NCBI GenBank assembly: GCA_041674405.1
Contig: JBAYVT010000001.1
Coordinates: 1,012 to 65,011 of the forward strand
Origin: Patescibacteria group bacterium
GTDB taxonomy: Bacteria; Patescibacteriota; UBA1384; XYA2-FULL-43-10
Direction: 5' to 3'
Length of the DNA: 64,000 nucleotides
The notes below the pieces were generated by a model, which saw only the letters and a list, made by a program, of their open reading frames with translations, ran no database searches and had not been told where the DNA came from. Made by a program: the position numbers and the translations under genes. Every line of letters begins with the position of its first letter. Within the stretch, counting starts at the first letter, position 1. Shown here piece after piece: positions 3,932 to 57,204 of the stretch.

Positions 3932-5056
3932 ATGAGAAAGTTCTCAATTGCTATTGTGGCGGCGCTCATGCTGTCGTTATTTGGCTTTTCAGGTCCGGAG
4001 AAGGCAAAGGCCGACACAGTGATTGCACCGCCGTGTAATTTTTCCTCACAGACGCTTCTTGGAAGCAATTATCTGGCTCAGACTTTTGTGCCTGGTGTGG
4101 ATAATATTGATAATGTTGGAATTTTGGTCGGAAATTTCAGTGCTAGTTCGGTAAAATTTAATCTGATGCTGACTGGACCGAACGGACAAGTTCTTGCAAC
4201 ACGACCGACTTCGCTTTCCGGTAATTTCGCTTGGCCATATCGTTATATTGATCCTCAATTTTCGATTCCATCTACAAGGACTGGAACATATGTGATCTGG
4301 GTCTACCCATATACCGGATATGAAAATAATGAATTATATGTAAAAGGTTCTGCATTTAGTGATGAGAGCTGTTATCCGAACGGCGGAGCATATCAAAATA
4401 TTTTTACCAATTTACACCGTGATTTTAGCTTCGTAGTTTTTGGGCACAATAATGATGCTTCAGCTCCCGAAGTAGTTGAAGCACCAGCAGACCAACAACC
4501 GCCTGTCGATAATCAGTCTCTGCCAGCTGCTGACCAGCCGTCTGGAACATCTTCTGATACAGCAACGACAAACGCAACAGAAAAGTCGAGCAATTCACCA
4601 AAAGATTTGACTGCCAAATGGGACGAAAACGCAAACGCGGTAAACTTGTCATGGAGTGTGTCGTCACTTTCCGGGCTTAGCGGATATGAAATTTATAAAA
4701 CCAATTCGACCGAGAACACATTCTCCAAGCTTGGGACGACAACCAAAGACGTTCTTTCTTACCAGGACAAAGATGTCAAATACGGAGAGTCGTATTTGTA
4801 TTATGTTGTTGGGGTGGCGGGAACAGCTGTTTCTGATAGTTCCAACACAGTCTCGTTCCTTGTTGATGATCAAGGCATAAAGCCATCGACTCCGCTTCCC
4901 GGTGAACAAAATGAGAGTTTTTGGCAAAAGGTTGGAAATAATATCGTAAATAATCAAGTATATTTGCTTGGGGCATCAGCATTGCTCTTAACTCTTCTCC
5001 TTATTCTTGAGGTTATTGAACGAATCCGAAAACGATCTCAAAAGAATCGTCTCTAG
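3932..5056 (+). CDS. Secreted/cell-surface protein with fibronectin type III domain and C-terminal TM anchor
   Basis: N-terminal signal peptide (MRKFSIAIVAALMLSLFGFSGPEKAKA). Ser/Thr/Pro-rich linker. FN3-like segment (LTAKWDENANAVNLSWSV...YEIYKTNSTEN...YLYYVVGV). C-terminal hydrophobic helix plus basic tail (LLGASALLLTLLLILEVIERIRKRSQKNRL). GGGAGGGAAAA SD before the ATG. Confidence 0.6.
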   Translation: MRKFSIAIVAALMLSLFGFSGPEKAKADTVIAPPCNFSSQTLLGSNYLAQTFVPGVDNIDNVGILVGNFSASSVKFNLMLTGPNGQVLATRPTSLSGNFAWPYRYIDPQFSIPSTRTGTYVIWVYPYTGYENNELYVKGSAFSDESCYPNGGAYQNIFTNLHRDFSFVVFGHNNDASAPEVVEAPADQQPPVDNQSLPAADQPSGTSSDTATTNATEKSSNSPKDLTAKWDENANAVNLSWSVSSLSGLSGYEIYKTNSTENTFSKLGTTTKDVLSYQDKDVKYGESYLYYVVGVAGTAVSDSSNTVSFLVDDQGIKPSTPLPGEQNESFWQKVGNNIVNNQVYLLGASALLLTLLLILEVIERIRKRSQKNRL

Positions 5057-5071
5057 AAAATTAAGGTTGCT

Positions 5072-5111
5072 AAATTCAAAGATCCGCCTAGCTAGGCGGA
5101 TCTTTGAATTT
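5072..5111. terminator. Perfect 40-bp palindrome (aaattcaaagatccgcctag|ctaggcggatctttgaattt); likely bidirectional terminator or operator
   Basis: Read directly: 20+20 nt perfect inverted repeat immediately after the stop of the FN3 gene, followed by TTTG on the plus strand. Confidence 0.5.
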
Positions 5112-5137
5112 GTTGCCCGTTATATTTTGTATGTAGA

Positions 5138-5166
5138 TTGACACACGATCAATATTGTGTTATTAT
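5138..5166 (+). promoter_or_regulatory. Sigma70-like promoter TTGACA-N17-TATTAT
   Basis: Consensus -35 TTGACA (5138-5143), 17-nt spacer, -10 TATTAT (5161-5166). It sits directly in front of the high-GC island at 5170-5690. Confidence 0.45.
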
Positions 5167-5209
5167 TCGCCAGTGTCGGACTACTACTTCGCAGCCATGG
5201 AGGATTATC

Positions 5210-5635
5210 TTGAAACCCGAAGAAGTGAAAGCATTGGCAAGTTGTTTTGTCAATCGGTGTGAGCAAGCGTTCGTCGACAATCCGCAGGGCCCGCAACTGC
5301 GCGTGTTCGAAAGAGGTGGACGATGGTATGCGGGTGTGATCCTGCGTATTTGCCGAGATATCGACACCTCAGTTGTGCTTGTAGTGCTAAGTGAGCATTT
5401 GCAGCTTGAGGTAGTCGAGGAAATCAAGCGAATGCGCCCCGGGGTCGATGTCGTGACGATCGCAAGATCTGTGAGAGTCAGAGTGTCATCCTTTGTTGCG
5501 CGACTGGAATCCGGCGTATTGCTTTGCTTGACCGGAAGGCAAGCCGGTTTCCTCCAGTCGCTTCTCGTCACACTACCCGTGAGCGCAATTCCCCTCGCAC
5601 TCAGCCGCACAACCGAATCCGCAGCCGGCAACTAG
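5210..5635 (+). CDS. Hypothetical protein in high-GC island A (alternative reading: structured ncRNA)
   Basis: GGAGGA SD (5199-5204) is followed 5 nt later by a TTG start in frame with a 141-codon ORF ending at TAG 5633-5635. GC is about 57% against about 35% for the flanks. The antisense strand is also open, as expected at high GC. No family recognised. Confidence 0.35.
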   Translation: MKPEEVKALASCFVNRCEQAFVDNPQGPQLRVFERGGRWYAGVILRICRDIDTSVVLVVLSEHLQLEVVEEIKRMRPGVDVVTIARSVRVRVSSFVARLESGVLLCLTGRQAGFLQSLLVTLPVSAIPLALSRTTESAAGN

Positions 5636-5690
5636 CCGGTACTGAAGTACTGGGAGAGCACGGCTTCGCCGTGCTCCTTTCAGTTATTAG
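5634..5690 (+). terminator. Multi-hairpin terminator incl. 9-bp stem with UUCG tetraloop (gagcacggc-ttcg-gccgtgctc)
   Basis: Hairpins at 5634-5651 and 5656-5677 are followed by a T-rich tail ctttcagttattagatcgttttt. Confidence 0.45.
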
Positions 5691-5704
5691 ATCGTTTTTA
5701 AGAG

Positions 5705-5917
5705 TTACATATGCAAAAGTGTAAAAACCTTGTAAATCAGAAGCGCGGGCCAAACGATTGCTTTCAGAAAGCCTAAGACCCCCCACCAAAACGTATCTGC
5801 TTGCTGAATAAAATACACTGCAGCGCCGATGAATGCCAGTCCGTAAGCACCACCAAATATTCCATTGGCGCTTCCCTTGCCTTTACTAACCTTCAATTCA
5901 CATTTTTCTTTTGCCAT
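5705..5917 (-). CDS. Small membrane protein (70 aa, 2 TM)
   Basis: aagggagaa SD before the ATG. Translation MAKEKCELKVSKGKG...GLAFIGAAVYFIQQADTFWWGVLGFLKAIVWPALLIYKVF. Confidence 0.45.
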   Translation of the reverse strand: MAKEKCELKVSKGKGSANGIFGGAYGLAFIGAAVYFIQQADTFWWGVLGFLKAIVWPALLIYKVFTLLHM

Positions 5918-8830: not shown

Positions 8831-8887
8831 ATCAATCCTCTTGCCCTGAGCGAGGTCGAAGGGCAACATTTCTTAATTTCATATTAT

Positions 8888-10501: not shown

Positions 10502-10993
10502 CTACAGCGCCGGCGGCTGCGGCATGCCGCAGCCAATCATTACGATACCCACGCTGCCTGCGGGTGCAGCCTCCATGATGCGCTCGACGGTGCACTGCGG
10601 GCAGGTGCATGTGGACTTGTCCCTCGTCCAGACCTTCCAACCTGCCGCGACTCCGTAGTGCCGCTCGCCGAAAAGGCCGAAGACAGCCTTCATCTCGTAG
10701 TCGTAGATGTCCGTGATGAGCTTCACCCGCGCTGCATGCTCGAGGCACTGGCGCAGGAAGTCCTTGTTGTCGTCTGTGTCCTGTTCCTCGATCTCATCGA
10801 GTTTCTTCAAGATGCCCTCGGCCTCCGGCCGGAAGCTCTCGATGAGGCTGTACAGGCGCTTCAGCTCCTCGGGCAGGTCCCCGATCACATTGGCGTTCTC
10901 CGGGATCGGACCCTCGGGCTCGATTAGCTCAACTACTCCCATGCCAGCCAGTACGTCCTGAATCTTTAACATCGACATCACCTTTATTTTCAC
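10502..10993 (-). CDS. Hypothetical protein, high-GC island B (163 aa, acidic, CxCPxC motif)
   Basis: GC about 60% ORF with coherent protein-like composition. C-terminal KSTCTCPQC. The first about 12 codons are AT-rich. Confidence 0.5.
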   Translation of the reverse strand: MKIKVMSMLKIQDVLAGMGVVELIEPEGPIPENANVIGDLPEELKRLYSLIESFRPEAEGILKKLDEIEEQDTDDNKDFLRQCLEHAARVKLITDIYDYEMKAVFGLFGERHYGVAAGWKVWTRDKSTCTCPQCTVERIMEAAPAGSVGIVMIGCGMPQPPAL

Positions 10994-11027: not shown

Positions 11028-11077
11028 CTTTCGGGAGCAAATAATCGGAAATAATTCCAAACATTTGCTCCCGAAAG
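11028..11077. promoter_or_regulatory. 15-bp perfect inverted repeat with 20-nt loop (ctttcgggagcaaat ... atttgctcccgaaag), 35 nt upstream of gene B start
   Basis: Read directly. Located in the C-B intergenic region on the minus-strand transcript. Could be a terminator/attenuator or an operator. Confidence 0.35.
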
Positions 11078-11244
11078 ATTGAATAATATTAACATATTAA
11101 TTCTGATCTGTCAACGATCGTGAATTGTAGTGTTTCTTGCCTTCGGTTGGCATAATCACACAATATACTTAAATTACAACCCTCTTAATCAAAGAACGAA
11201 CCGGCACGCCGATTCGCTCAATGATCATCCCCTCTTTTCCAGTT

Positions 11245-11880
11245 CTAGTGGCTCCTGCCCCCTCGGCCTCGGTCCTTTGCGCCGCGCGTATCCTTGCCCT
11301 GAAGAGCAAGGCGCTTCTGCTTGTCGGCGCGCCTCTTCTTTTGCTCGTCGGTCGGCGATTTCTTCTTGCCCAAGATTCGCTCCTGGGTCGGCGATTTCCT
11401 CGCTTTCTCCTTGGCAAGAAGCGCGCGAACTTCGCGCTTAACCCAGCCATCAAGGCGGTCCAGGTGGACATCCCGTTCCTCCACGCAGACGACCTGGAAG
11501 AGAAGCGGATCGGTCTTCTGGATGGAAACGCATACCTGCGTGTAGCATCCGTTCCGGTGGTAGATGACGCGGCCGGCGGTGATGAAGCACACCGACTGCG
11601 GCTCCTTGTCCGGGTTGGTTGCGGTTGTGCTCGAGGCAATTCCCTCCTTCTGGTCGTCCAGGTGGATGCGGTCCGTATTTGTGGGTACGCTCACATCCAT
11701 CAGGTTGACGAAGAGTCTCGCCTTGGGGATCCGCGCCATAGCTTGAGGAATCCGATACATCCCGTTGCCCTGGTCGGCAAGCTTGACGAAGAGCCGCTGC
11801 CCGACTACCAAGCAGGCAAGCCTGTGATTGTGGATAATGGCGGCATTGCCATTGTTCCGTGAAACCGCGAAATACAGCAT
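11245..11880 (-). CDS. Hypothetical protein, high-GC island C (about 211 aa) with highly basic Lys/Arg-rich C-terminal tail
   Basis: AGGAGG SD 6 nt before the ATG at 11880. Globular N-terminal region, then a tail KEKARKSPTQERILGKKKSPTDEQKKRRADKQKRLALQGKDTRGAKDRGRGGRSH. GC about 58%. Confidence 0.5.
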   Translation of the reverse strand: MLYFAVSRNNGNAAIIHNHRLACLVVGQRLFVKLADQGNGMYRIPQAMARIPKARLFVNLMDVSVPTNTDRIHLDDQKEGIASSTTATNPDKEPQSVCFITAGRVIYHRNGCYTQVCVSIQKTDPLLFQVVCVEERDVHLDRLDGWVKREVRALLAKEKARKSPTQERILGKKKSPTDEQKKRRADKQKRLALQGKDTRGAKDRGRGGRSH

Positions 11881-12066
11881 TTTTTCCTCCTGAGTATTGG
11901 TGTGATTGCGGCGATATTGTTTTAACATAAATTGTTTAGTTTGTAAACCTTTAAAAAGGATGTAAACACAAAAACACCGCCGGTGTTCAGGGCGGTGTTT
12001 TAATATAGAATCAGGCTAACTATTTCGATGTATAGGAAATTCCCTTCGACTTCGCTCAGGGCGAGA

Positions 12067-14715
12067 CTATTTGGAAGTATAGCTGATTCCGGATTTCGCG
12101 GCGATTACGGCTTGTGCAGCGGCAAGTCTGGCGATTGGGACGCGATATGGTGAGCAGGAAACATAATTCATCTTTACTTTGTGGCAGAAGTGAATTGTGG
12201 TAGGATCTCCGCCGTGCTCTCCACAGATGCCGACTTTCAGATTCTTCTTTGATGATCGGCCTTTCTCGATCCCAATCTCAACCATTTTGCCGACACCGTC
12301 TTGGTCGAGAGTTTGGAATGGATCAGCGTCAAAGATGCCAATTTCCTTGTAAACTTTGATGAATTTGCCGGCGTCGTCGCGGGAGAAGCCCATTGTCATT
12401 TGGGTTAAGTCGTTGGTTCCGAAGGAGAAGAATTCAGCTTTCTCAGCGATCTCGTCTGCAGTTACAGCGGCTCGTGGAACTTCGATCATTGTGCCAACCT
12501 TATAGTCGATCTTGGTTTTGTATTCGGACATGACTCGGGTAGCAGTTTCATCAACAACTTTCTTCTGGTTCTCAAACTCCTTGACATTGCCTACAAGCGG
12601 GATCATGATTTCCGGAACGATCTTAAATCCATCTTTCGCAAGTTCGCAAGCGGCAGAGATGATAGCTTCAGCCTGCATCTCGGTGATTTCCGGATATGTA
12701 ATTCCGAGGCGGCAACCGCGGTGGCCAAGCATCGGATTGAATTCGTGCAAATCTTCAGAAACCTGTTTGATCTTGGATTCAGAAATACCGATTTTTTTCG
12801 AAAGAGCTTTGACATCCTCGTTTGTCTTTGGCAAAAACTCATGCAAAGGCGGGTCCAAAAGACGGATGGTTACCGGAAAACCCTTCATTTCGCGGAAGAG
12901 GCCAAGGAAATCTTCTTTCTGGAAAGGTAAGAGCTTTTTCAAGGCTTTTCTTCTTTCGTCTTCGGTATCGGCAAGAATCATCTGTTGCATGAATGGAAGG
13001 CGCTTCTCGTCGAAAAACATGTGTTCGGTGCGGCAGAGGCCGATGCCTTCGGCGCCAAATTCTCGAGCGGTCTTGGCATCAGTCGGCGTGTCTGCATTGG
13101 TGCGAACTCCGAGGACGCGGGTTTTGTCAGCCCAGCCCATGAGAGTCTTGAATTCGGCTTTGATCTCCGGCTCGATTGTTTTGACCTCGCCAAGGATGAC
13201 TTGGCCGGTAGAGCCGTTTAGGGCGATCCATTCCCCTGCTTTGACTGTATATGAACCAACAGTAAATTTCTTCGCTTTTTCATCAATCTTTATATCACCG
13301 CAGCCGGCAACGCATGTTTTGCCCATTCCGCGGGCAACAACTGCGGCGTGGCTGGTCATACCGCCGCGGCAGGTCAAGATTCCCTGTGCTGCGTACATGC
13401 CGTGGATATCATCCGGTGAGGTCTCAGCGCGGACCAGGACGACCTTTTCGTTGTCGCCAAGTTCGGCAGCGGTATCTGCGTCGAAAACGACCTTACCGAC
13501 AGCGGCACCGGGAGAGGCCGGAAGTCCCATTGCGATAACCTCAAGCGTAGCTTTCGGATCGATGACAGGGTGCAAAAGCTGGTCGATAGTTTCCGGTTCT
13601 AGCCGCATTACAGCTTCGTCTTCTCCGATCATTTTCTCTTTGACCAAATCAACAGCGATCTTGACAGCAGCTTGGGCAGTTCTTTTGCCGGTTCTGGTCT
13701 GTAACATGTAGAGCTTGTTTCTTTCGATGGTAAACTCAAAATCCTGAACATCTTTATAATGTTTTTCAAGTTTGTCTGTGATTGCCTTGAGCTCTGTAAA
13801 TGCTTTTGGCATCTCCTTCTTGAGATCGGCTATCGGGTGCGGCGTGCGTACGCCGGCTACAACATCTTCGCCCTGTGCATTGGTAAGGAATTCACCGTAG
13901 AACTCCTTATCACCAGTGGAAGGATTTCTAGTGAATCCGACGCCGGTGGCGCAGTCATCACCCATGTTGCCGAAGACCATTGCCTGGACATTTACGGCTG
14001 TTCCCAAATTGTGAGGAATGTTATTCAAGTTTCTGTAAGTATTGGCTCGGTCATTGCCCCAGCTCTCGAATACCGCTTTGTAGGCCATTTCAAGTTGTTT
14101 AGCCGGATCCTCTGGAAATTCTTTGCCGGTCTCTTTCTTGACCAATTTTTTATATCCGTCGATCACATCTAGAAGATCGTCGGCGGTGAGGTCGGTATCA
14201 AGTTTAGCACCGGCTTTGTCTTTGACAAGATCTAGAACATGTTCAAATTTGTCTTTGTCGATAGCAAGTACGACATTTCCGAACATCTGGATAAATCTTC
14301 GGTAGGCGTCGTGAGCAAATCGGGAATTCCCGGTAAGCTCGGCCATGCCTTTGACAGTTTCATCGTTCAAGCCAAGGTTTAGGATCGTATCCATCATACC
14401 CGGCATCGAGAACTTGGCGCCGGAACGGACGGAGAGAAGGAGCGGATTTTTGGCGTCGCCGAATTTTTTTCCGGTTGACTTTTCAACTTTTGCAAGCATT
14501 GGTGCAAGCTCGGAGTCAAAGTCCTTCGGCAGTTTCTTGCCGTTGTTGTAATAGTAATTGCACATTTCGGTCGTGATAGTAAAACCTGATGGGACCGGAA
14601 CGCCTAAATTCGACATTTCGGCAAGGTTTGCGCCTTTACCGCCCAAGAGAGCTTTCATTTCCGCTTTGCCTTCGGCTTTTCCGTCACCGAAATAATAGAT
14701 GTACTTCGTACTCAT
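12067..14715 (-). CDS. ppdK: Pyruvate, phosphate dikinase
   Basis: 882 aa. N-terminal ATP-grasp (GGKGANLAEM). Central phospho-His domain (GGMTSHAAVVARGMG). C-terminal PEP-utilising TIM barrel (CGEHGGDP). Confidence 0.9.
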   Translation of the reverse strand: MSTKYIYYFGDGKAEGKAEMKALLGGKGANLAEMSNLGVPVPSGFTITTEMCNYYYNNGKKLPKDFDSELAPMLAKVEKSTGKKFGDAKNPLLLSVRSGAKFSMPGMMDTILNLGLNDETVKGMAELTGNSRFAHDAYRRFIQMFGNVVLAIDKDKFEHVLDLVKDKAGAKLDTDLTADDLLDVIDGYKKLVKKETGKEFPEDPAKQLEMAYKAVFESWGNDRANTYRNLNNIPHNLGTAVNVQAMVFGNMGDDCATGVGFTRNPSTGDKEFYGEFLTNAQGEDVVAGVRTPHPIADLKKEMPKAFTELKAITDKLEKHYKDVQDFEFTIERNKLYMLQTRTGKRTAQAAVKIAVDLVKEKMIGEDEAVMRLEPETIDQLLHPVIDPKATLEVIAMGLPASPGAAVGKVVFDADTAAELGDNEKVVLVRAETSPDDIHGMYAAQGILTCRGGMTSHAAVVARGMGKTCVAGCGDIKIDEKAKKFTVGSYTVKAGEWIALNGSTGQVILGEVKTIEPEIKAEFKTLMGWADKTRVLGVRTNADTPTDAKTAREFGAEGIGLCRTEHMFFDEKRLPFMQQMILADTEDERRKALKKLLPFQKEDFLGLFREMKGFPVTIRLLDPPLHEFLPKTNEDVKALSKKIGISESKIKQVSEDLHEFNPMLGHRGCRLGITYPEITEMQAEAIISAACELAKDGFKIVPEIMIPLVGNVKEFENQKKVVDETATRVMSEYKTKIDYKVGTMIEVPRAAVTADEIAEKAEFFSFGTNDLTQMTMGFSRDDAGKFIKVYKEIGIFDADPFQTLDQDGVGKMVEIGIEKGRSSKKNLKVGICGEHGGDPTTIHFCHKVKMNYVSCSPYRVPIARLAAAQAVIAAKSGISYTSK

Positions 14716-14893
14716 AGTAGATTCCTATTTAATAATGACGAAATTATATTAGCAAAAAATTATTTTAAGATCAAATATCCTTTATTTATAACATTCCCAA
14801 ATATTTGAGATATCTGATCAAATGATAGACAAATCCGGTAAAATATGTTAAAAAAGATTGCGCACATCATCCAGCACCCAACAGGAGAAAACC

Positions 14894-15679
14894 ATGATCC
14901 CGATGTACCTGAAGGATATTCCGATCGGTCCACATGTGGGTAAGGTGGTTGAAGAGTTCGATTCCGACACAGAGACACGCTACAGCATCCTGTCGGGCGT
15001 GTTCAACAACCAGGGATATATCCTCTCCCGCGAGGATGTAGAGGAAGAGTTCGGCAAGAACTCGTGCCTCCTTGACTTCATTTCACACGTTCATCTGCGC
15101 GAGCAGATGGCTGGATTAACCTTGTGGCTCAAGACTTTCGTCGCAGAAGTGAGAGGCGAAGGCGCTGCTCGTGTCATGTTTCCCGAATTTGAAGAGCACA
15201 ACGCACGAATACACTTGTTGCGAAGCGAGTGGATTCGCCACGAGGCCATTCGGGAGGCTACCAACGACGCGCTGAAAGCCCTGGCGGAATGCATGCGATG
15301 GTTCAACATTCAGATGGTGGCGGGATGGATCCAGCGCACCCTGACGGATGTGCTGGAACAGATGGAAATCTGCATGGATTTCGATGCATTCGAAGTGCCG
15401 CGGCAGTGTTCGTTGCTCGACGATCTGGCGTATCGTATGGGCAGAAGCGAGATGCGGTCGTCATGCGCCCGCGCCTACAACAGCCTGGCTGTCGCCTGTG
15501 AGTCGAGCCCGATCTTCAAAGACGTGGTGCTTCTTCCTCCCGAAAAGATTGTTCGTCTCGGACAGTGGCGCATGGGGCTGATCCAAGATCCGGGTCTTGT
15601 CCCAGAAGAGAAGCCCGAGGAGGACGAGGACGATTACGCCCTGAACGAATCCGGCATATTCGTGCCGAAGAAGAAGTGA
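14894..15679 (+). CDS. Hypothetical protein, high-GC island D (about 261 aa, acidic C-terminus)
   Basis: AGGAGA SD 5 nt before the ATG at 14894 (MIPMYLKD...). GC about 57%. Ends EEKPEEDEDDYALNESGIFVPKKK. Confidence 0.5.
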   Translation: MIPMYLKDIPIGPHVGKVVEEFDSDTETRYSILSGVFNNQGYILSREDVEEEFGKNSCLLDFISHVHLREQMAGLTLWLKTFVAEVRGEGAARVMFPEFEEHNARIHLLRSEWIRHEAIREATNDALKALAECMRWFNIQMVAGWIQRTLTDVLEQMEICMDFDAFEVPRQCSLLDDLAYRMGRSEMRSSCARAYNSLAVACESSPIFKDVVLLPPEKIVRLGQWRMGLIQDPGLVPEEKPEEDEDDYALNESGIFVPKKK

Positions 15680-18942: not shown

Positions 18943-19114
18943 ATGACTCCTTAGGTTAGAGACTAAGAATACATAAATATTATAGCATTGTTGTCAAACA
19001 AATCACTGTGCAAGTGAATATATCAATTATATTTTATTGCAGAGTTGACTACTATACAGAAATGTGTTAGAACTGATCAGTGATTGTTATCTACACGGAG
19101 GGGGTTTTGCTTCG

Positions 19115-19540
19115 ATGGCTGAGACGTACTTGTTTCGTGGCCGTCCGCATTGCCGGATTTCTGGTCTGGGTGTAGCGCACCTTAAGGCAAATGCCGGCAA
19201 TACACTGGCGTACGTAAGGCTGGGCATCGTCCTCGAAGACGGACTGACGCAGGAGGGCGTCAGTGCTACAGGGCGGTACTACGACGGTGAAGGGAAAACA
19301 AGGGAACGCGGTCATGCAGACAATGCTAGCGTCATTACAGTTCTCGCGATGCTAAATGACACCTGCAGGAATCTCAGCCGCGAAGCGAATGTCAAACATG
19401 CCCATTTCAACTTCGACGGTAAGGAAGTTGAGGTCGGCATTGAGTTCCATGCGCGCAGAAATGTCGGTCAGGCATTTTTGTCCAGCGTAGCGGATCTCTT
19501 CGAGGAGTCGTTTGCTGCCGTCAGTGCGGCGGTAGCCTAG
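19115..19540 (+). CDS. Hypothetical protein, high-GC island E (about 141 aa)
   Basis: GGAGGGGG SD upstream of ATG 19115 (MAETYLFRGRPH...). GC about 58%. Confidence 0.4.
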   Translation: MAETYLFRGRPHCRISGLGVAHLKANAGNTLAYVRLGIVLEDGLTQEGVSATGRYYDGEGKTRERGHADNASVITVLAMLNDTCRNLSREANVKHAHFNFDGKEVEVGIEFHARRNVGQAFLSSVADLFEESFAAVSAAVA

Positions 19541-19703: not shown

Positions 19704-20066
19704 TCAGCTCTCCTGGTCGAGCTCGAGGTTCTCGACCAGGGCCTGGAAGAGCATATCTCCAGGTGTCTGGGGACCCACATCTTTGCTGGTTTCGTAGAAG
19801 AAGCTATTGCCATCTTCCAGGGAAAGCTCCAGGTCAAGAACTCGTCGAAATTCCCCGTCACCATCGAGGTCAAGAATCTCGTACAAAGTGGTGATGAGGT
19901 CGGAGAGCTCTGATATATCGCAGAGCCGCTCCGGCATGACGAAACGCGAAGCCTGGAGTTGTGCCCGAATCTTGCTGACGAGCGACCGATTACACCATGG
20001 CGACTCCTTAATGAACTCGTCAATGGCCATGTTGATCTTCACAGAGAGCGGTCTCTCTGGGATCAT
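19704..20066 (-). CDS. Hypothetical acidic protein, high-GC island F (120 aa)
   Basis: Convergent with island E gene. GC about 55%. Asp/Glu/Leu-rich. Confidence 0.4.
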   Translation of the reverse strand: MIPERPLSVKINMAIDEFIKESPWCNRSLVSKIRAQLQASRFVMPERLCDISELSDLITTLYEILDLDGDGEFRRVLDLELSLEDGNSFFYETSKDVGPQTPGDMLFQALVENLELDQES

Positions 20067-34876: not shown

Positions 34877-35065
34877 TTGGTGGACCCGATCAGACATTAG
34901 AACCCGTTTCACTCTTTCGAAACCCTCGGTTCCGAATAACCTCCTATACGGGCAACTCTTGTTTCCCGACCCCTTCCGGAGCTCAAGCCTTCTCTTTGGG
35001 GAGAACAAATTAAAATAGAGTCGCAAGGACTCATTTTATTCTGGTGGACCCGATCAGGCTTGAAC
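34869..35065. repeat. 24-bp direct repeat (ttttatt[t/c]tggtggacccgatcag) duplicating the tRNA-Ala 3' end; att-like
   Basis: Copies at 34869-34892 and 35042-35065, 1 mismatch, bracketing about 150 bp. The second copy is the real tRNA-Ala 3' end plus 8 nt downstream. Confidence 0.5.
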
Positions 35066-35119
35066 TGACGACCTCCTCGATGCCATCGAGGCGCTCTAGC
35101 CAACTGAGCTACGGGCCCA
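35042..35119 (-). tRNA. tRNA-Ala (anticodon GGC), CCA encoded
   Basis: Hand-folded: acceptor gggcccg/cgggtcc, D-arm gctc-agttggcta-gagc, anticodon stem cctcg/cgagg with loop atGGCat, T-arm gtcag-ttcaagc-ctgat, discriminator A, CCA. Confidence 0.8.
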
Positions 35120-36897: not shown

Positions 36898-37263
36898 CTA
36901 GGCGATATAGGGACACGGTTTGCCATTCTCATGGATTCCGTGGCAAAGACCACAGACGTACTTGTCTGCGAATACCTCTTGTGGGTGGGCTTTGGGCGGC
37001 TGGTCTTTGAGTGTATAGTGCTCGCCGTTGAAGTCCCAACACATACTAGGACACCACTGCCTAGCCCTCTCGGGAGTATTTCTTACAGCGTCGTCGCTGT
37101 CCAATGCAAACATGGCGGCGACAGCTCGTAGAACCTCCTCTCGGTTGGTCGGATCCTCGACATCCACCTCTGTCTGCGTTGGGAAGGTCCTCTCTGGAAA
37201 GTAGACCCTGATGCGGTGTTTTTCTTCCATGGTGGCGGGTGTCTCACTCCTTTCGTGCGACAC
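36898..37263 (-). CDS. Hypothetical protein, high-GC island G (121 aa, Cys-rich C-terminus)
   Basis: GC about 56%. CPSMCWDF...CGLCHGIHENGKPCPY. Located 200 nt downstream of tRNA-Val. Confidence 0.45.
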   Translation of the reverse strand: MSHERSETPATMEEKHRIRVYFPERTFPTQTEVDVEDPTNREEVLRAVAAMFALDSDDAVRNTPERARQWCPSMCWDFNGEHYTLKDQPPKAHPQEVFADKYVCGLCHGIHENGKPCPYIA

Positions 37264-52899: not shown

Positions 52900-55800
52900 C
52901 TAATATCTTGAAAATATCTTTATCCAAGAAAACGCCCGCTGAAAAGCTTCCAGTATGAGATTTAAGGCGGATTGCTGGGCTTTCTGGGTGATTACAGCAT
53001 TGTCTTCCGATGTGCCAGGATTGCCGGCTTTGTCTTTGGATACGGCTCTTAAATGGTAGGTCTTGGTCGGATCAAGATTGGAGATAATGACAACATGGGC
53101 ATTGGAATAGGATCCGTCTTCCTGGGTTTTGGAAGAATAATTGGAAGATGATACTCCTTCGCCGTATTCAACCTGAGAGGTAGAGGTTTCATCTGTGCGC
53201 CAGGAAACAACCACTTGGGCTTTACCACCATCGGATGATGTGCCGGTTTTGGATTCAATGGTAAGTTCTGTTACTTTTGGCGGACGGGAATCAAGAGCGG
53301 TTTTAAAAGTGTTGGTATCACTTGTGGCCTTGTTACCATATTGGTCTGTGCCTGAAGCAGTAAGAGTGTAGGAGGCGTTGTCAGAAAGATTTGCAATGCT
53401 GATTTCATGATCTTTCTTCATGTCGGAAGTAGCTACTTCTCTCTGTTCTCCACCAGATGGACCATAAAGGACAGATGAGGTGGTCTCGACATTGGTTGCC
53501 CAAGTTACCTTCATGCCAGCATAGGCCTGATCGTCAACGGGCTCAAAGCGAAGATTGGAGATGATGGGGATGGGGGGAGTGGAAAAATCCTTAAGGCCAT
53601 AAAATCTTGTTCCGTCTTGAGCTGTCGCATCAACTCTTAATTGATAGCTGGTACCACCAGAAAGACCAGCTAGTTCTTTAGAAAATTCAGTGCTATAGGT
53701 ATCACTGACAACAATTGATTGGCCAAGATCGCCAACACCAAATTCCAAATTAGTTTTTGCTGGATAAGTGGTAGTCCATGAAACGCTTGCAAGTGTTGGA
53801 GTCAAGACTTTGACTTCTAAATTTTTAATGCCTGGTGCCACCGCCGTGGTGGTCTCATGCCAGGCAGATTCTCCAGTGTTGGCAGAAGTATCCATCCATG
53901 TGACTTTGTAACGATAAGTGCGTTCCGGTTCGAGGCCAACCACCCTTACATTGTGGTTGATGTCAAAACCACCGAAGGCTTGTTCGGTGAGATATTCATT
54001 GCCCTCATAGACGATAACTGATCCTTTGGTGTTTTTGTTAGTCGTCCAGCTCACCGTGATCGATGACGGACCGGCAGTAACGTTCGGCCCATCGATGATG
54101 TTTACTACTCCAGTAGAGCAGTAAACTCCGGTCTGATAAGCAGAGACATTACCTGCATTGTCTTTCGATCTAATGTATATTACATTATCTCCTTCTTGAT
54201 AAGGATGAAGGGAAAGCGTGGTATCGGCAGTAGATTGGACTTGGCCTTGAGAACCATTTTTGTAGTCATAACCAGCAATACCGGCACCGCCGGAATCTCC
54301 GGGAGCATCCCAGGTGGCGGTGAAGTCTTGGGTGGTGGAACAGCCAACAGGAGATAGATTGATATACTCCGGAGCAGGTGGCGGACCGCCATCATAGGAA
54401 TACGTGAATAACTTGGTGGCGGGAGTTTGAATATTCAGGTCGTTATCTTCGGATTTAATAAGCAGATAATATGTGACTCCGGATGTCAAAGCGCCTGCTG
54501 GCACTTGGATATGTTGTTCTGTATCTGCTGCACCGGAATGGGCTTGATAGTGATATGCGCCACTTGATTCCAAAACACCAGATGTAGAGACGGGATCAGC
54601 TGAATCAGAGGTACCAAAGTAGATAAGGTAGCCGCGGATACCGGAACCCCCTTCTTCATCAGCCGCTCCGGCGAAGGTGATGTAGGGACTAGCACTATTT
54701 CCCCAGCCGGAGTCGGTAAACTCGGTGGTCTTTCCGGAGTCACTGTAGAAATGGGCAGAGGAGGGATTGGTGGGGGCAGTAGTATCTGATCCGGTATGAG
54801 TAATGGTGATATTATCCATCATCCCATCCCAGCGGTCGGTTATAGAGTTCACTCGGCTACCGATGTAAAAGTAATAACCACACGAAAGGTTCCCCCAAGG
54901 AGTATCATCAAGAAGAGACGCCACCTCTGTACTATTAACATTAAGTGATATTATTCCACTAGTCCCATCGTAAAGGACCTGAACATTATTCCAGCTCCCG
55001 TCCGCCAAACTAAGAGCTTGGGATTCCAAAACCAGCTTACGGCTTGCAGTTGTAAGATACATTCTAAGCCTGTAATCAAAGATGTCGTAGACCAATCGCA
55101 GTTCGTCTGTGCTCCCCTGGGCGTCAAAAAGTATCTTTTCTTTTGTAAAAGTCGACAAAAAGCCCGATCCGTCAATTTTTGTTTGGACAACTCGATTGTT
55201 TTGATAGTCAACAATATAGATATTTTCAGAAGTCACATCATAAGCAATTCCTCGGGGATAATTGAAATTACCGACTCCACTTCCGTTTGTACCGTAAGTT
55301 GTCCACCCGGTGCCATCCATCTTGGTTTTTACAATGCGATGATTGTTATAATCAGTCACAAAAATATTGCCACTTTCTGAATCGACCGTAATACCGCGAG
55401 GTCCATTGAAATTACCTGTCCCATTGCCAGCAGTACCGTAAGCTGTCCATCCTGTGCCGTCCATTTTAGTTTTGACAATGCGGTTGTTGCTATAGTCAGC
55501 GACATAAACATAATCATTGACTTGATCATAATCAATGTAGCAAGGATTGCTGAAGTTTCCTTCACCGCTGCCATTTGTGCCGTAAGCCGTCCACCCGGTG
55601 CCATCCATCTTGGTTTTTACAATACGGTTATTGCCATAATCAACGACGTAAACGTAATCACCAACTGAATCATAAGCAATACCATATGGATGATTAAAAT
55701 TGCCAATGCCACTGCCCACCGTTCCGTAAGCCGTCCACCCGGTGCCATCCATCTTGGTTTTCACGATACGGTTGTTGCTATAGTCAGCGACATAAACATA

Positions 55801-57204
55801 ATCACTTGCCGGATCATAGGCGATACCATATGGACCATTAAAATTACCTACTCCACTTCCAGTTGTGCCATATGCAGTCCACCCCGTACCATCCATTTTG
55901 GTTTTCACAATGCGGTTGTTGCTATAGTCAGTGACATAGATGTAACCACTGGATCGGTCATGAGCAATGCCTAGTGGTTGATTAAATCCAGCCGTACCCC
56001 TGCCATTTGTACCATATGCAGTCCACCCCGTACCATCCATTTTGGTTTTCACAATATTACGATTTCCAGAATCAACCACATAAATATTACCGCTCCCGGG
56101 GTCAAAAACAATACCAGCTGGTTCGGAAAATTTCCCTACTCCACTTCCGTTCGTGCCATATGCAGTCCATTCTGTTCCATCCATCTTGGTTTTGACAATA
56201 CGCTTATTGCCAGTATCAGCAACGTAGGCATAATCACCAGTGGCGTCATAAGAAATACCCGATGGGTTTGAGAAATTGCCTACTCCACTTCCAGTTGTGC
56301 CATATGCAGTCCATTCTGTTCCATCCATCTTGGTTTTGACAATACGCTTATTGCCATAATCAGCGACATAGGCGTAATCACCAACCGGATCATAGGTAAT
56401 ACCGTATGGGCTACTGAAATTTCCTACTCCACTTCCGTTCGTGCCATAAGTTGTCCATCCCGTACCATCCATCTTGGTTTTGACAATGCGGTGATTGCCA
56501 GTATCAGCAACATAGAGATAGCTATTTGTCGAATCATAAACAATGCTATATGAAAGTCCAAAATTTCCTACTCCACTTCCGTTCGTGCCGTAAGTTGTCC
56601 ACCCGGTGCCATCCATCTTGGTTTTGACGATGCGTTTATTGCTGGTATCCATCACATATATATACCCACTAGATGAGTCGTATGCAATTCCACGTGGATT
56701 ATTAAAATTTCCTATTCCACTTCCGTTCGTGCCATAAGTTGTCCATCCCGTACCATCCATCTTGGTTTTGACAATGCGGTTGTTACCATAGTCTGCAACA
56801 TAGACGTAACCATTGGCAGCATCATAGGCAATATTATATGGCAAATAAAGCTGTCCACTGGTGTCAATTGAATTTTTTCCATAATCATCTTTTTGAAAGT
56901 CCAAGGAAATAGAGCCTTTGGACGCAGATAGATTATCATTGGTAGCATATTTTAGAGTCTCGGCGCCATCGTAAGTATATTTAAGAGAACTTCCCGATCC
57001 ACCCTCAGCATTCGTAGTTGAGAGGGTGGGAAAGGTACTATCCGTAGAAGCAGTCCCTAACCCAACAGAGTAATCTGCATTATAGCTTCCATTATCATAT
57101 GAGGTTCTGAAAGAATCTCCTGCTTTGGTTCCTTTTGTAAATATTGGGAAAATATTGTAGGCTACCAAAAATATGATCGTGAGAGAAACGACCAAAATTC
57201 CCAA
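52900..57204 (-). CDS. Giant secreted/surface protein (1434 aa): N-terminal TM anchor, 12 tandem NHL repeats (two 6-bladed beta-propellers), LamG/concanavalin-like domain, several FN3/PAP-N-like domains
   Basis: 12 repeats of about 47 aa (consensus YVADYGNNRIVKTKMDGTGWTAYGTNGSGVGNFNxPxGIAYD). Jelly-roll segment (LRLVYDIFDYRLRMYLT...ISLNVNS). Repeated ...SWTT...YRYKV... beta-sandwich modules. TTG start (alternatively an upstream ATT). Inserted between rplO and secY. Confidence 0.8.
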   Translation of the reverse strand: MGILVVSLTIIFLVAYNIFPIFTKGTKAGDSFRTSYDNGSYNADYSVGLGTASTDSTFPTLSTTNAEGGSGSSLKYTYDGAETLKYATNDNLSASKGSISLDFQKDDYGKNSIDTSGQLYLPYNIAYDAANGYVYVADYGNNRIVKTKMDGTGWTTYGTNGSGIGNFNNPRGIAYDSSSGYIYVMDTSNKRIVKTKMDGTGWTTYGTNGSGVGNFGLSYSIVYDSTNSYLYVADTGNHRIVKTKMDGTGWTTYGTNGSGVGNFSSPYGITYDPVGDYAYVADYGNKRIVKTKMDGTEWTAYGTTGSGVGNFSNPSGISYDATGDYAYVADTGNKRIVKTKMDGTEWTAYGTNGSGVGKFSEPAGIVFDPGSGNIYVVDSGNRNIVKTKMDGTGWTAYGTNGRGTAGFNQPLGIAHDRSSGYIYVTDYSNNRIVKTKMDGTGWTAYGTTGSGVGNFNGPYGIAYDPASDYVYVADYSNNRIVKTKMDGTGWTAYGTVGSGIGNFNHPYGIAYDSVGDYVYVVDYGNNRIVKTKMDGTGWTAYGTNGSGEGNFSNPCYIDYDQVNDYVYVADYSNNRIVKTKMDGTGWTAYGTAGNGTGNFNGPRGITVDSESGNIFVTDYNNHRIVKTKMDGTGWTTYGTNGSGVGNFNYPRGIAYDVTSENIYIVDYQNNRVVQTKIDGSGFLSTFTKEKILFDAQGSTDELRLVYDIFDYRLRMYLTTASRKLVLESQALSLADGSWNNVQVLYDGTSGIISLNVNSTEVASLLDDTPWGNLSCGYYFYIGSRVNSITDRWDGMMDNITITHTGSDTTAPTNPSSAHFYSDSGKTTEFTDSGWGNSASPYITFAGAADEEGGSGIRGYLIYFGTSDSADPVSTSGVLESSGAYHYQAHSGAADTEQHIQVPAGALTSGVTYYLLIKSEDNDLNIQTPATKLFTYSYDGGPPPAPEYINLSPVGCSTTQDFTATWDAPGDSGGAGIAGYDYKNGSQGQVQSTADTTLSLHPYQEGDNVIYIRSKDNAGNVSAYQTGVYCSTGVVNIIDGPNVTAGPSSITVSWTTNKNTKGSVIVYEGNEYLTEQAFGGFDINHNVRVVGLEPERTYRYKVTWMDTSANTGESAWHETTTAVAPGIKNLEVKVLTPTLASVSWTTTYPAKTNLEFGVGDLGQSIVVSDTYSTEFSKELAGLSGGTSYQLRVDATAQDGTRFYGLKDFSTPPIPIISNLRFEPVDDQAYAGMKVTWATNVETTSSVLYGPSGGEQREVATSDMKKDHEISIANLSDNASYTLTASGTDQYGNKATSDTNTFKTALDSRPPKVTELTIESKTGTSSDGGKAQVVVSWRTDETSTSQVEYGEGVSSSNYSSKTQEDGSYSNAHVVIISNLDPTKTYHLRAVSKDKAGNPGTSEDNAVITQKAQQSALNLILEAFQRAFSWIKIFSRY
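55100..56820. repeat. About 12 tandem near-identical 141-bp coding repeats (NHL blades) inside the giant gene
   Basis: Long near-identical DNA stretches are visible (e.g. ccgtaagttgtccacccggtgccatccatcttggttttgacaatgcggt recurring). Confidence 0.7.

Follow-up and report, generated by a model that had tools for sequence, protein, structure and literature searches.

ORFans are genes for hypothetical proteins that lie in compositional islets acquired by horizontal transfer. Phage morons, for their part, are independent transcription units within phage or prophage genomes, each equipped with its own promoter and its own terminator and set apart by a deviant GC content (Bacteriophage 2012;2:225, PMC3594210). 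The locus studied here, hereafter island A, resembles both: its gene has a GC content of 0.55 and lies in a window (i.e., the whole 64,000-nt stretch of Patescibacteria DNA that was analysed) with a GC content of about 0.40. An earlier note on this DNA had left the product of the locus ambiguous between a 141-aa protein and a structured RNA of about 510 nt. According to our analysis, and with a probability of roughly 0.9, island A is a monocistronic gene for an orphan protein of 141 residues (P0001), carried by what is most likely a horizontally acquired, autonomous accessory cassette that is moron-like in its architecture. In this explanation, a strong sigma-70-type promoter would direct the synthesis of an mRNA with a 5′ untranslated region of about 35 nt, ribosomes would bind the GGAGGA motif and initiate at the TTG codon, translation would stop at the TAG codon, and the hairpins spanning 5624-5690 would end the transcript (Table 1). 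The product would be a small accessory protein of the cytoplasm, with an expression that is autonomous and probably strong.

Table 1. Features of island A, of its surroundings and of the other GC-rich cassettes (positions in the window, except for the last line, which refers to the contig of the homologue, L002).
Feature	Position	Strand	Remarks
Upstream fn3-domain gene	3932-5056	+	precedes the palindrome
Perfect 20+20-nt palindrome	5072-5111		loop-less, 100% complementary; A-run and T-run on its flanks; repeat search
Near-consensus sigma-70-type promoter, TTGACA-N17-TATTAT	5138-5166	+	consensus scan; putative activity
Antisense shadow ORF, 160 codons	5149-5631	-	not taken as a gene
Shine-Dalgarno motif, GGAGGA	5199-5204	+	5 nt upstream of the TTG start; read from the sequence
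CDS of P0001, TTG to TAG, 141 codons/aa	5210-5635	+	stop TAG at 5633-5635; homologue and gene calls
First 3′ hairpin	5624-5640	+	6 bp, 5-nt loop; overlaps the stop codon
Second, long G+C-rich hairpin with U-rich tail	5642-5690	+	9-bp G+C core at 5656-5676; putative intrinsic terminator
Next gene downstream of island A	5705-5917	-	opposite strand
Cassette B	10502-10993	-	GC-rich single-gene unit
Cassette C	11245-11880	-	GC-rich single-gene unit
Cassette D	14858-15679	+	GC-rich single-gene unit
Cassette E	19064-19540	+	GC-rich single-gene unit
Cassette F	19704-20066	-	GC-rich single-gene unit
Cassette G	36898-37263	-	GC-rich single-gene unit
Divergent 316-aa GC-rich ORF beside the P0005 gene	L002 782-1732	-	CX3CX2C motif

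The coding nature of island A is best appreciated through its homologue. An exhaustive phmmer (HMMER) scan of 1.84 billion cluster representatives with P0001 returned a single full-length relative, P0005 (138 aa; residues 8-132, E = 2.3e-14), which is encoded on the Logan contigs SRR30681657_2521385 and SRR30681658_2036552 (loci L002 and L003). Another match of the exhaustive search, P0004 (2064 aa), was rejected as compositional, this acidic low-complexity repeat protein being matched in 10 stretches. BLASTP aligns 124 residues of P0001 and P0005 with one 1-residue gap (35% identity, 57% positives, E = 1e-23). The BLASTP match begins at residue 8, and MAFFT places both N-termini in the first column and the common C-terminal Gly-Asn in the last two. 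The two proteins are collinear, both coding sequences end in Gly-Asn-stop, and the conserved blocks read F-x-x-G-x-[KR]-W-Y-x-G, [VL]VLV[VL]LS, EVV-x-x-IK-x-[MI]R and S-x-FVA-x-L-x-x-G. They differ in their start codon (ATG for P0005, TTG for P0001) and in their isoelectric point (6.8 vs. 8.9). When P0005 was searched against the whole window with tblastn, the sole match fell at 5231-5599, in a plus frame (E = 1.3e-19).

This similarity is a matter of protein sequence, since blastn recovered no DNA similarity between island A and the L002 contig beyond 14 nt spanning the stop codon (AACTAGCCGG...). In a six-frame cross-comparison of the two loci, the sense frame reached 77 bits, vs. 49 bits for the best alternative, which is an antisense shadow frame. 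Identity at codon positions 1/2/3 amounts to 0.50/0.61/0.365 in the protein-guided alignment of this one sequence pair, and to 0.50/0.63/0.37 (chi-square p = 1.5e-4; one pair, with dS saturated) in two ungapped blocks, for which protein-based gap placement is not needed. Moreover, 23 of the 45 identical residues are encoded by different codons. The earlier note had named three-nucleotide periodicity of substitutions and synonymous changes as what would make the locus a CDS; because both are found against P0005, the CDS reading is favoured, the comparative evidence coming from this one homologue. Altogether, we regard the coding nature of island A, its reading frame, its start region, its homologue and its compositional foreignness (see below) as demonstrated; that island A is a protein-coding gene, as judged by sequence comparison, deserves a higher confidence than the figure given above for the explanation as a whole.

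The family is nevertheless extremely small. A word-indexed protein search of 5.8 billion clusters yielded nothing but the ORF itself when this was used alone, and nothing beyond P0001 and P0005 with a two-sequence profile. Out of about 15 billion predicted proteins, the family has two members. Likewise, no further relatives emerged from a scan of viral and metagenome contigs (IMG/VR included) with the P0001/P0005 profile, nor from tblastn searches of GenBank phages and PLSDB plasmids.

Public annotations of the ORF are not consistent. JGI and ENA both list a 141-aa hypothetical protein that is identical to our CDS, vs. 110 aa in the NCBI annotation of the metagenome-assembled genome (MFA7243681.1, WC080_00050, Patescibacteria group bacterium), which begins at an internal GTG at 5303. 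No Shine-Dalgarno motif stands before this GTG. From the sequence, the TTG at 5210 is the better supported start, because a Shine-Dalgarno motif precedes it and because the N-termini of P0001 and P0005 share an alignment column. The public annotation can thus be corrected to the 141-aa form, with its TTG start.

The expression signals reported by the earlier note are for the most part where it had placed them, whether the promoter, the GGAGGA motif followed by an in-frame TTG and a 141-codon ORF, or the GC-rich segment (GC 0.50-0.57 over 5201-5700 vs. about 0.40 for the window). The promoter matches 11 of the 12 consensus positions, which no other site in the 64-kb window does as well, and an extended -10 TG lies one base upstream of its -10 hexamer. 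Taken by itself, this score is within chance and not statistically exceptional: a window should contain 0.65 matches of this quality by chance, and one or more appeared in 49 of 100 shuffles. The weight of the promoter comes instead from its placement and from its recurrence upstream of the homologue, where TTGACA-N17-TACTAT ends 44 nt before the start codon, vs. 43 nt in island A. Similarly, a GGGAGG is located 7 nt before the ATG of P0005. Transcription would start near 5173-5175.

At the other end of the unit, the tandem hairpins and the 9-bp stem described by the earlier note stand, but not its UUCG tetraloop: the 5656-5676 core carries a UUC loop with a C-G closing pair, which can also be described as a CUUCG pentaloop, and not the canonical C(UUCG)G. 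Termination would take place at the second hairpin, which has convergent genes on its two sides and may act for the minus-strand gene downstream as well. On the left, the boundary of the unit is marked by the palindrome, which has the appearance of a bidirectional intrinsic terminator for the fn3-domain gene. That island A forms a self-contained transcription unit, as the earlier note had it, is in line with these consensus signals and with the architecture shared by the homologue, both of which suggest that the promoter and the terminator are functional.

P0001 (15.5 kDa) is probably a small soluble protein, with a predicted alpha/beta fold. It has no signal peptide-like N-terminus, and its one hydrophobic stretch is borderline, the hydrophobicity not being kept in P0005. 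AlphaFold2 models have a low confidence (pLDDT 45-46). The model built from the two-sequence alignment shows an N-terminal half arranged as alpha-beta-beta-beta-alpha (pLDDT 50-70) and gives no resolved fold for the C-terminal half. Foldseek found no meaningful fold match for these models. Scans of P0001 against Pfam (E ≤ 10) and NCBIfam (E ≤ 0.1) and a sequence profile search of the PDB returned no match, P0005 had no credible match in Pfam or NCBIfam either, and scans of P0001 and P0005 against PHROGs and PADLOC gave no credible one, the PADLOC matches being at chance level and inconsistent with each other (SIR2, E = 0.013, for P0001; CARF, E = 0.018, for P0005). Because there is neither a fold nor a family match and the models have a low confidence, the function of P0001 is a guess. 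The architecture of the cassette and the rarity of the family, from which this guess is drawn, make it likely that P0001 serves in conflicts or interactions with other cells, mobile elements or phages, and not in core metabolism.

The surroundings of P0005 bring in a more specific proposal, in which P0001 would serve a radical SAM/SPASM enzyme as substrate or partner, perhaps as a RiPP-type precursor with a long leader, the modification then falling on the variable C-terminal tail with its final Gly-Asn. On L002, the P0005 gene has two neighbours. One is an AT-rich msrB, whose matches, at no more than 62% identity, are scattered over numerous phyla and do not single out a host; the other is a divergent, radical-SAM-like orphan (the 316-aa ORF of Table 1). 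This ORF shares an intergenic region with the P0005 gene, its CX3CX2C motif goes along with sub-threshold matches to Radical_SAM (E = 1e-4), SPASM (E = 0.06) and TIGR04053 (E = 0.013), and both genes belong to one GC-rich block (GC about 0.53-0.56) that adjoins msrB. In addition, the body of the P0001/P0005 family is conserved, with a variable C-terminal tail that features a 4-residue indel before the invariant GN. However, the linkage is a single observation, the 64-kb window holds no relative of the L002 enzyme (tblastn E > 1), the radical-SAM matches fall under the curated cut-offs, and the enzyme is itself an orphan, devoid of relatives in 5.8 billion protein clusters. As for the putative substrate, the tail of P0001 has no Cys-rich or otherwise recognisable core, a length of 141 aa with a predicted alpha/beta secondary structure is atypical for a precursor peptide, and the Pfam and NCBIfam scans revealed no leader family (NHLP, Nif11 or others). 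Hence, we consider this proposal very improbable as an alternative to a free-standing accessory protein.

At face value, a GC-rich segment of an AT-rich genome that is open on both strands and has a promoter on one side and a terminator on the other might also encode a structured non-coding RNA of about 510 nt, the ORF then being incidental to the GC-rich sequence. ORF length alone is indeed weak evidence for coding, because 4.3% of the mononucleotide shuffles of the segment give an open run of at least 141 codons, and the folding of the full transcript reaches a z-score of -3.27 when the terminator hairpins are counted in. Yet this last value is due to the terminator hairpins: the RNA body (5173-5620), when compared with dinucleotide shuffles, has a z-score of only -1.75 on the plus strand, similar to the -1.58 of the minus strand. 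The folding of the body is therefore unremarkable and not strand-specific. At the gathering threshold, Rfam covariance models found only three tRNAs in the whole 64-kb window and nothing in island A, which extends the negative verdict of the earlier note on RNase P, tmRNA, SRP, 6S, OLE, GOLLD, ROOL and group I/II introns, while a permissive scan (E ≤ 10) of 5000-5800 produced chance-level matches only, all on the flanking hairpins and none in the body. The earlier note had also suggested a long-range pairing between the Shine-Dalgarno region (5199-5218) and a downstream partner given as 5548-5557. This CCUCC-containing partner (GGTTTCCTCC) in fact lies one base upstream, at 5547-5556; the pairing is absent from the minimum free energy fold of island A, and no CCTCC occurs anywhere in the coding sequence of P0005, so that it has no counterpart in the homologue. 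Finally, the sole relative of the locus is recognisable as a protein in one frame and not as a nucleotide sequence, and its substitutions track codon positions. The structured-RNA reading is thus already largely refuted, and we give it very little credence compared with the protein-coding gene. One distant homologue, brought up by the exhaustive search, was enough to show that a locus with the looks of a large structured non-coding RNA is a small protein gene of an ordinary kind, which makes for a clean negative.

Beside these scans, another program differs on a tRNA elsewhere in the window: ARAGORN reports a tRNA-Ala(GGC) at 35042-35118 (minus strand), which aligns with no more than a part of the Rfam tRNA model (38 bits, model positions 7-64), and this tRNA may be atypical or degraded.

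The openness of both strands, which the earlier note had correctly observed, is an expected by-product of the composition of the sense strand. Antisense stops are possible only at Tyr, His and Gln codons in particular contexts, and P0001 has 1, 1 and 6 of these residues, respectively. In 56% of the synonymous-codon shuffles of the sense CDS, the antisense frame is fully open. The 160-aa antisense ORF was also rejected as a real gene in view of its Ser/Thr/Arg-rich translation, of a cross-species similarity weaker than that of the sense frame, and of its closure in L002, where the longest minus-strand ORF has 75 aa.

That the ORF is instead a decaying or non-functional remnant of foreign DNA, transcribed or not and with no selected product, would suit an orphan with one relative among about 15 billion predicted proteins, a foreign composition and a low-confidence structure prediction, but is hardly credible when frame, start context, length and C-terminus are kept between relatives whose DNA has diverged beyond recognition, when substitutions are conservative (57% positives) and when promoter, Shine-Dalgarno motif and terminator are intact. 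The preserved frame and the conservative substitutions therefore require long-term purifying selection on the protein shared by the two loci.

Turning to the origin of the accessory cassette, the GC contents at codon positions 1/2/3 are 0.64/0.44/0.57 in the gene of island A, vs. 0.48/0.37/0.39 for the host average, computed over 35 long ORFs of the window, two of which are themselves GC-rich cassettes. In the P0005 gene, the corresponding values are 0.62/0.36/0.62. Hence, in both genes, GC1 is the highest of the three and GC3 exceeds GC2. P0001 is moreover Arg-rich and Lys-poor. Part of the GC3 excess could stem from a tendency of native genes with high expression to favour codons that end in G or C, the native PPDK gene having a GC3 of 0.54.

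Around island A are found genes for an ABC ATPase, a DUF1801 protein, BipA/TypA, a DEAD-box helicase, PPDK, an fn3 surface protein and small membrane proteins. None of these chromosomal genes looks phage-derived, and their PHROG matches are not informative. We found no direct or inverted repeats flanking island A, no mobility genes and no donor, and the search for syntenic loci in genome and metagenome contigs, based on a neighbouring 236-aa protein, identified no relatives. Because its foreign composition is combined with a position between housekeeping genes, horizontal acquisition is the most likely origin of island A, and the Patescibacteria genome probably acquired it in this way, as judged from composition.

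Farther along the window, a 1286-aa ORF (52900-56760, minus strand) includes at least 10 tandem copies of a 144-nt (48-codon) unit at 55238-56833, with 68-76% identity, and presumably encodes a repeat-domain surface protein.

Island A does not stand alone. At least six other GC-rich cassettes (B to G in Table 1) are scattered among the housekeeping genes of the window, with a GC content of 0.54-0.60, a GC3 of 0.57-0.82 (vs. 0.39 for the host) and a GC1 higher than GC2, each with AT-rich DNA upstream and a G+C-rich hairpin downstream. Cassettes B to F have no family match in Pfam, NCBIfam, PHROG and PADLOC, nor does cassette G in PHROGs, the one library used for it; IMG/VR contains no relatives of cassettes B to D, and island A is not similar in sequence to any of the other GC-rich islands. 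Owing to these cassettes, island A is to be seen not as a singular RNA locus but as a member of a recurrent class of self-contained protein-gene cassettes with a foreign composition, of which the window contains at least seven.

Two further observations concern the DNA around cassettes B and C. Cassette B (minus strand) is preceded, in the region 11028-11077 and 11086-11114, by a TTGACA-N17-TAATAT promoter with an extended -10 TG, and its 5′ untranslated region (about 90 nt) contains a 23-bp near-perfect hairpin that might act in attenuation or in the processing or stability of the transcript. Besides, a 30-nt inverted repeat with 87% complementarity (CCCTTCGACTTCGCTCAGGGCGAG...) occurs at 8834-8863 and 12042-12071, enclosing a 3.2-kb segment with the DEAD-box helicase gene and two GC-rich cassettes. 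At its annotated 5′ end, the BipA ORF overlaps with one of the two copies, and the repeat is possibly of the REP-like type.

The loose end of most interest in this study of island A is the recurrence of GC-rich orphan cassettes. With their own expression signals, they give a modest clue to the way in which reduced genomes obtain accessory genes. A bolder view, which we regard as unlikely, is that the cassettes and the P0005 islet, located in a second AT-rich genome, are the traces of a hitherto undescribed path by which genes enter reduced genomes, with P0001 and P0005 as interaction or conflict proteins, possibly accompanied by a new radical SAM enzyme. If it were true, the cargo could come from unsampled viruses of Patescibacteria or consist of genes from the organisms on which these bacteria live.

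How, then, does island A compare with known systems? Like the OLE, GOLLD, ROOL, HEARO and raiA non-coding RNAs, it is GC-rich, bounded by a promoter and a terminator, and outside recognisable protein families. Unlike them, it has no covariance-model match and no excess stability of its RNA body, and it is conserved at the level of the protein, not of the RNA. The closest locus is that of P0005, which has the same succession of promoter, Shine-Dalgarno motif and start codon, the same C-terminal Gly-Asn-stop and the same position of GC-rich (0.53-0.55 for P0005) beside AT-rich DNA, but differs in its neighbours, i.e., msrB and the radical-SAM-like orphan, vs. the fn3 and BipA region for island A.

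With phage morons, island A shares the organisation of a single gene with its own promoter and terminator, both predicted from consensus scans, and a deviant composition (GC 0.55 vs. about 0.40; GC3 0.57 vs. 0.39). In contrast to morons, it is flanked by chromosomal housekeeping and lineage-specific genes instead of phage genes, P0001 has no PHROG match, and no relatives are found in IMG/VR or among GenBank phages. Because the prophage setting is absent, we call island A moron-like and not a moron. Its likeness to ORFans is closer, as it is short, lineage-restricted, compositionally atypical and without a family, and its product is a hypothetical protein according to JGI, ENA and NCBI. Island A is thus an orphan gene for a hypothetical protein in a compositional islet, but one that is GC-rich in an AT-rich host, which is the reverse of the typical AT-rich ORFans of enterobacteria, and that carries an unusually complete set of consensus expression signals.
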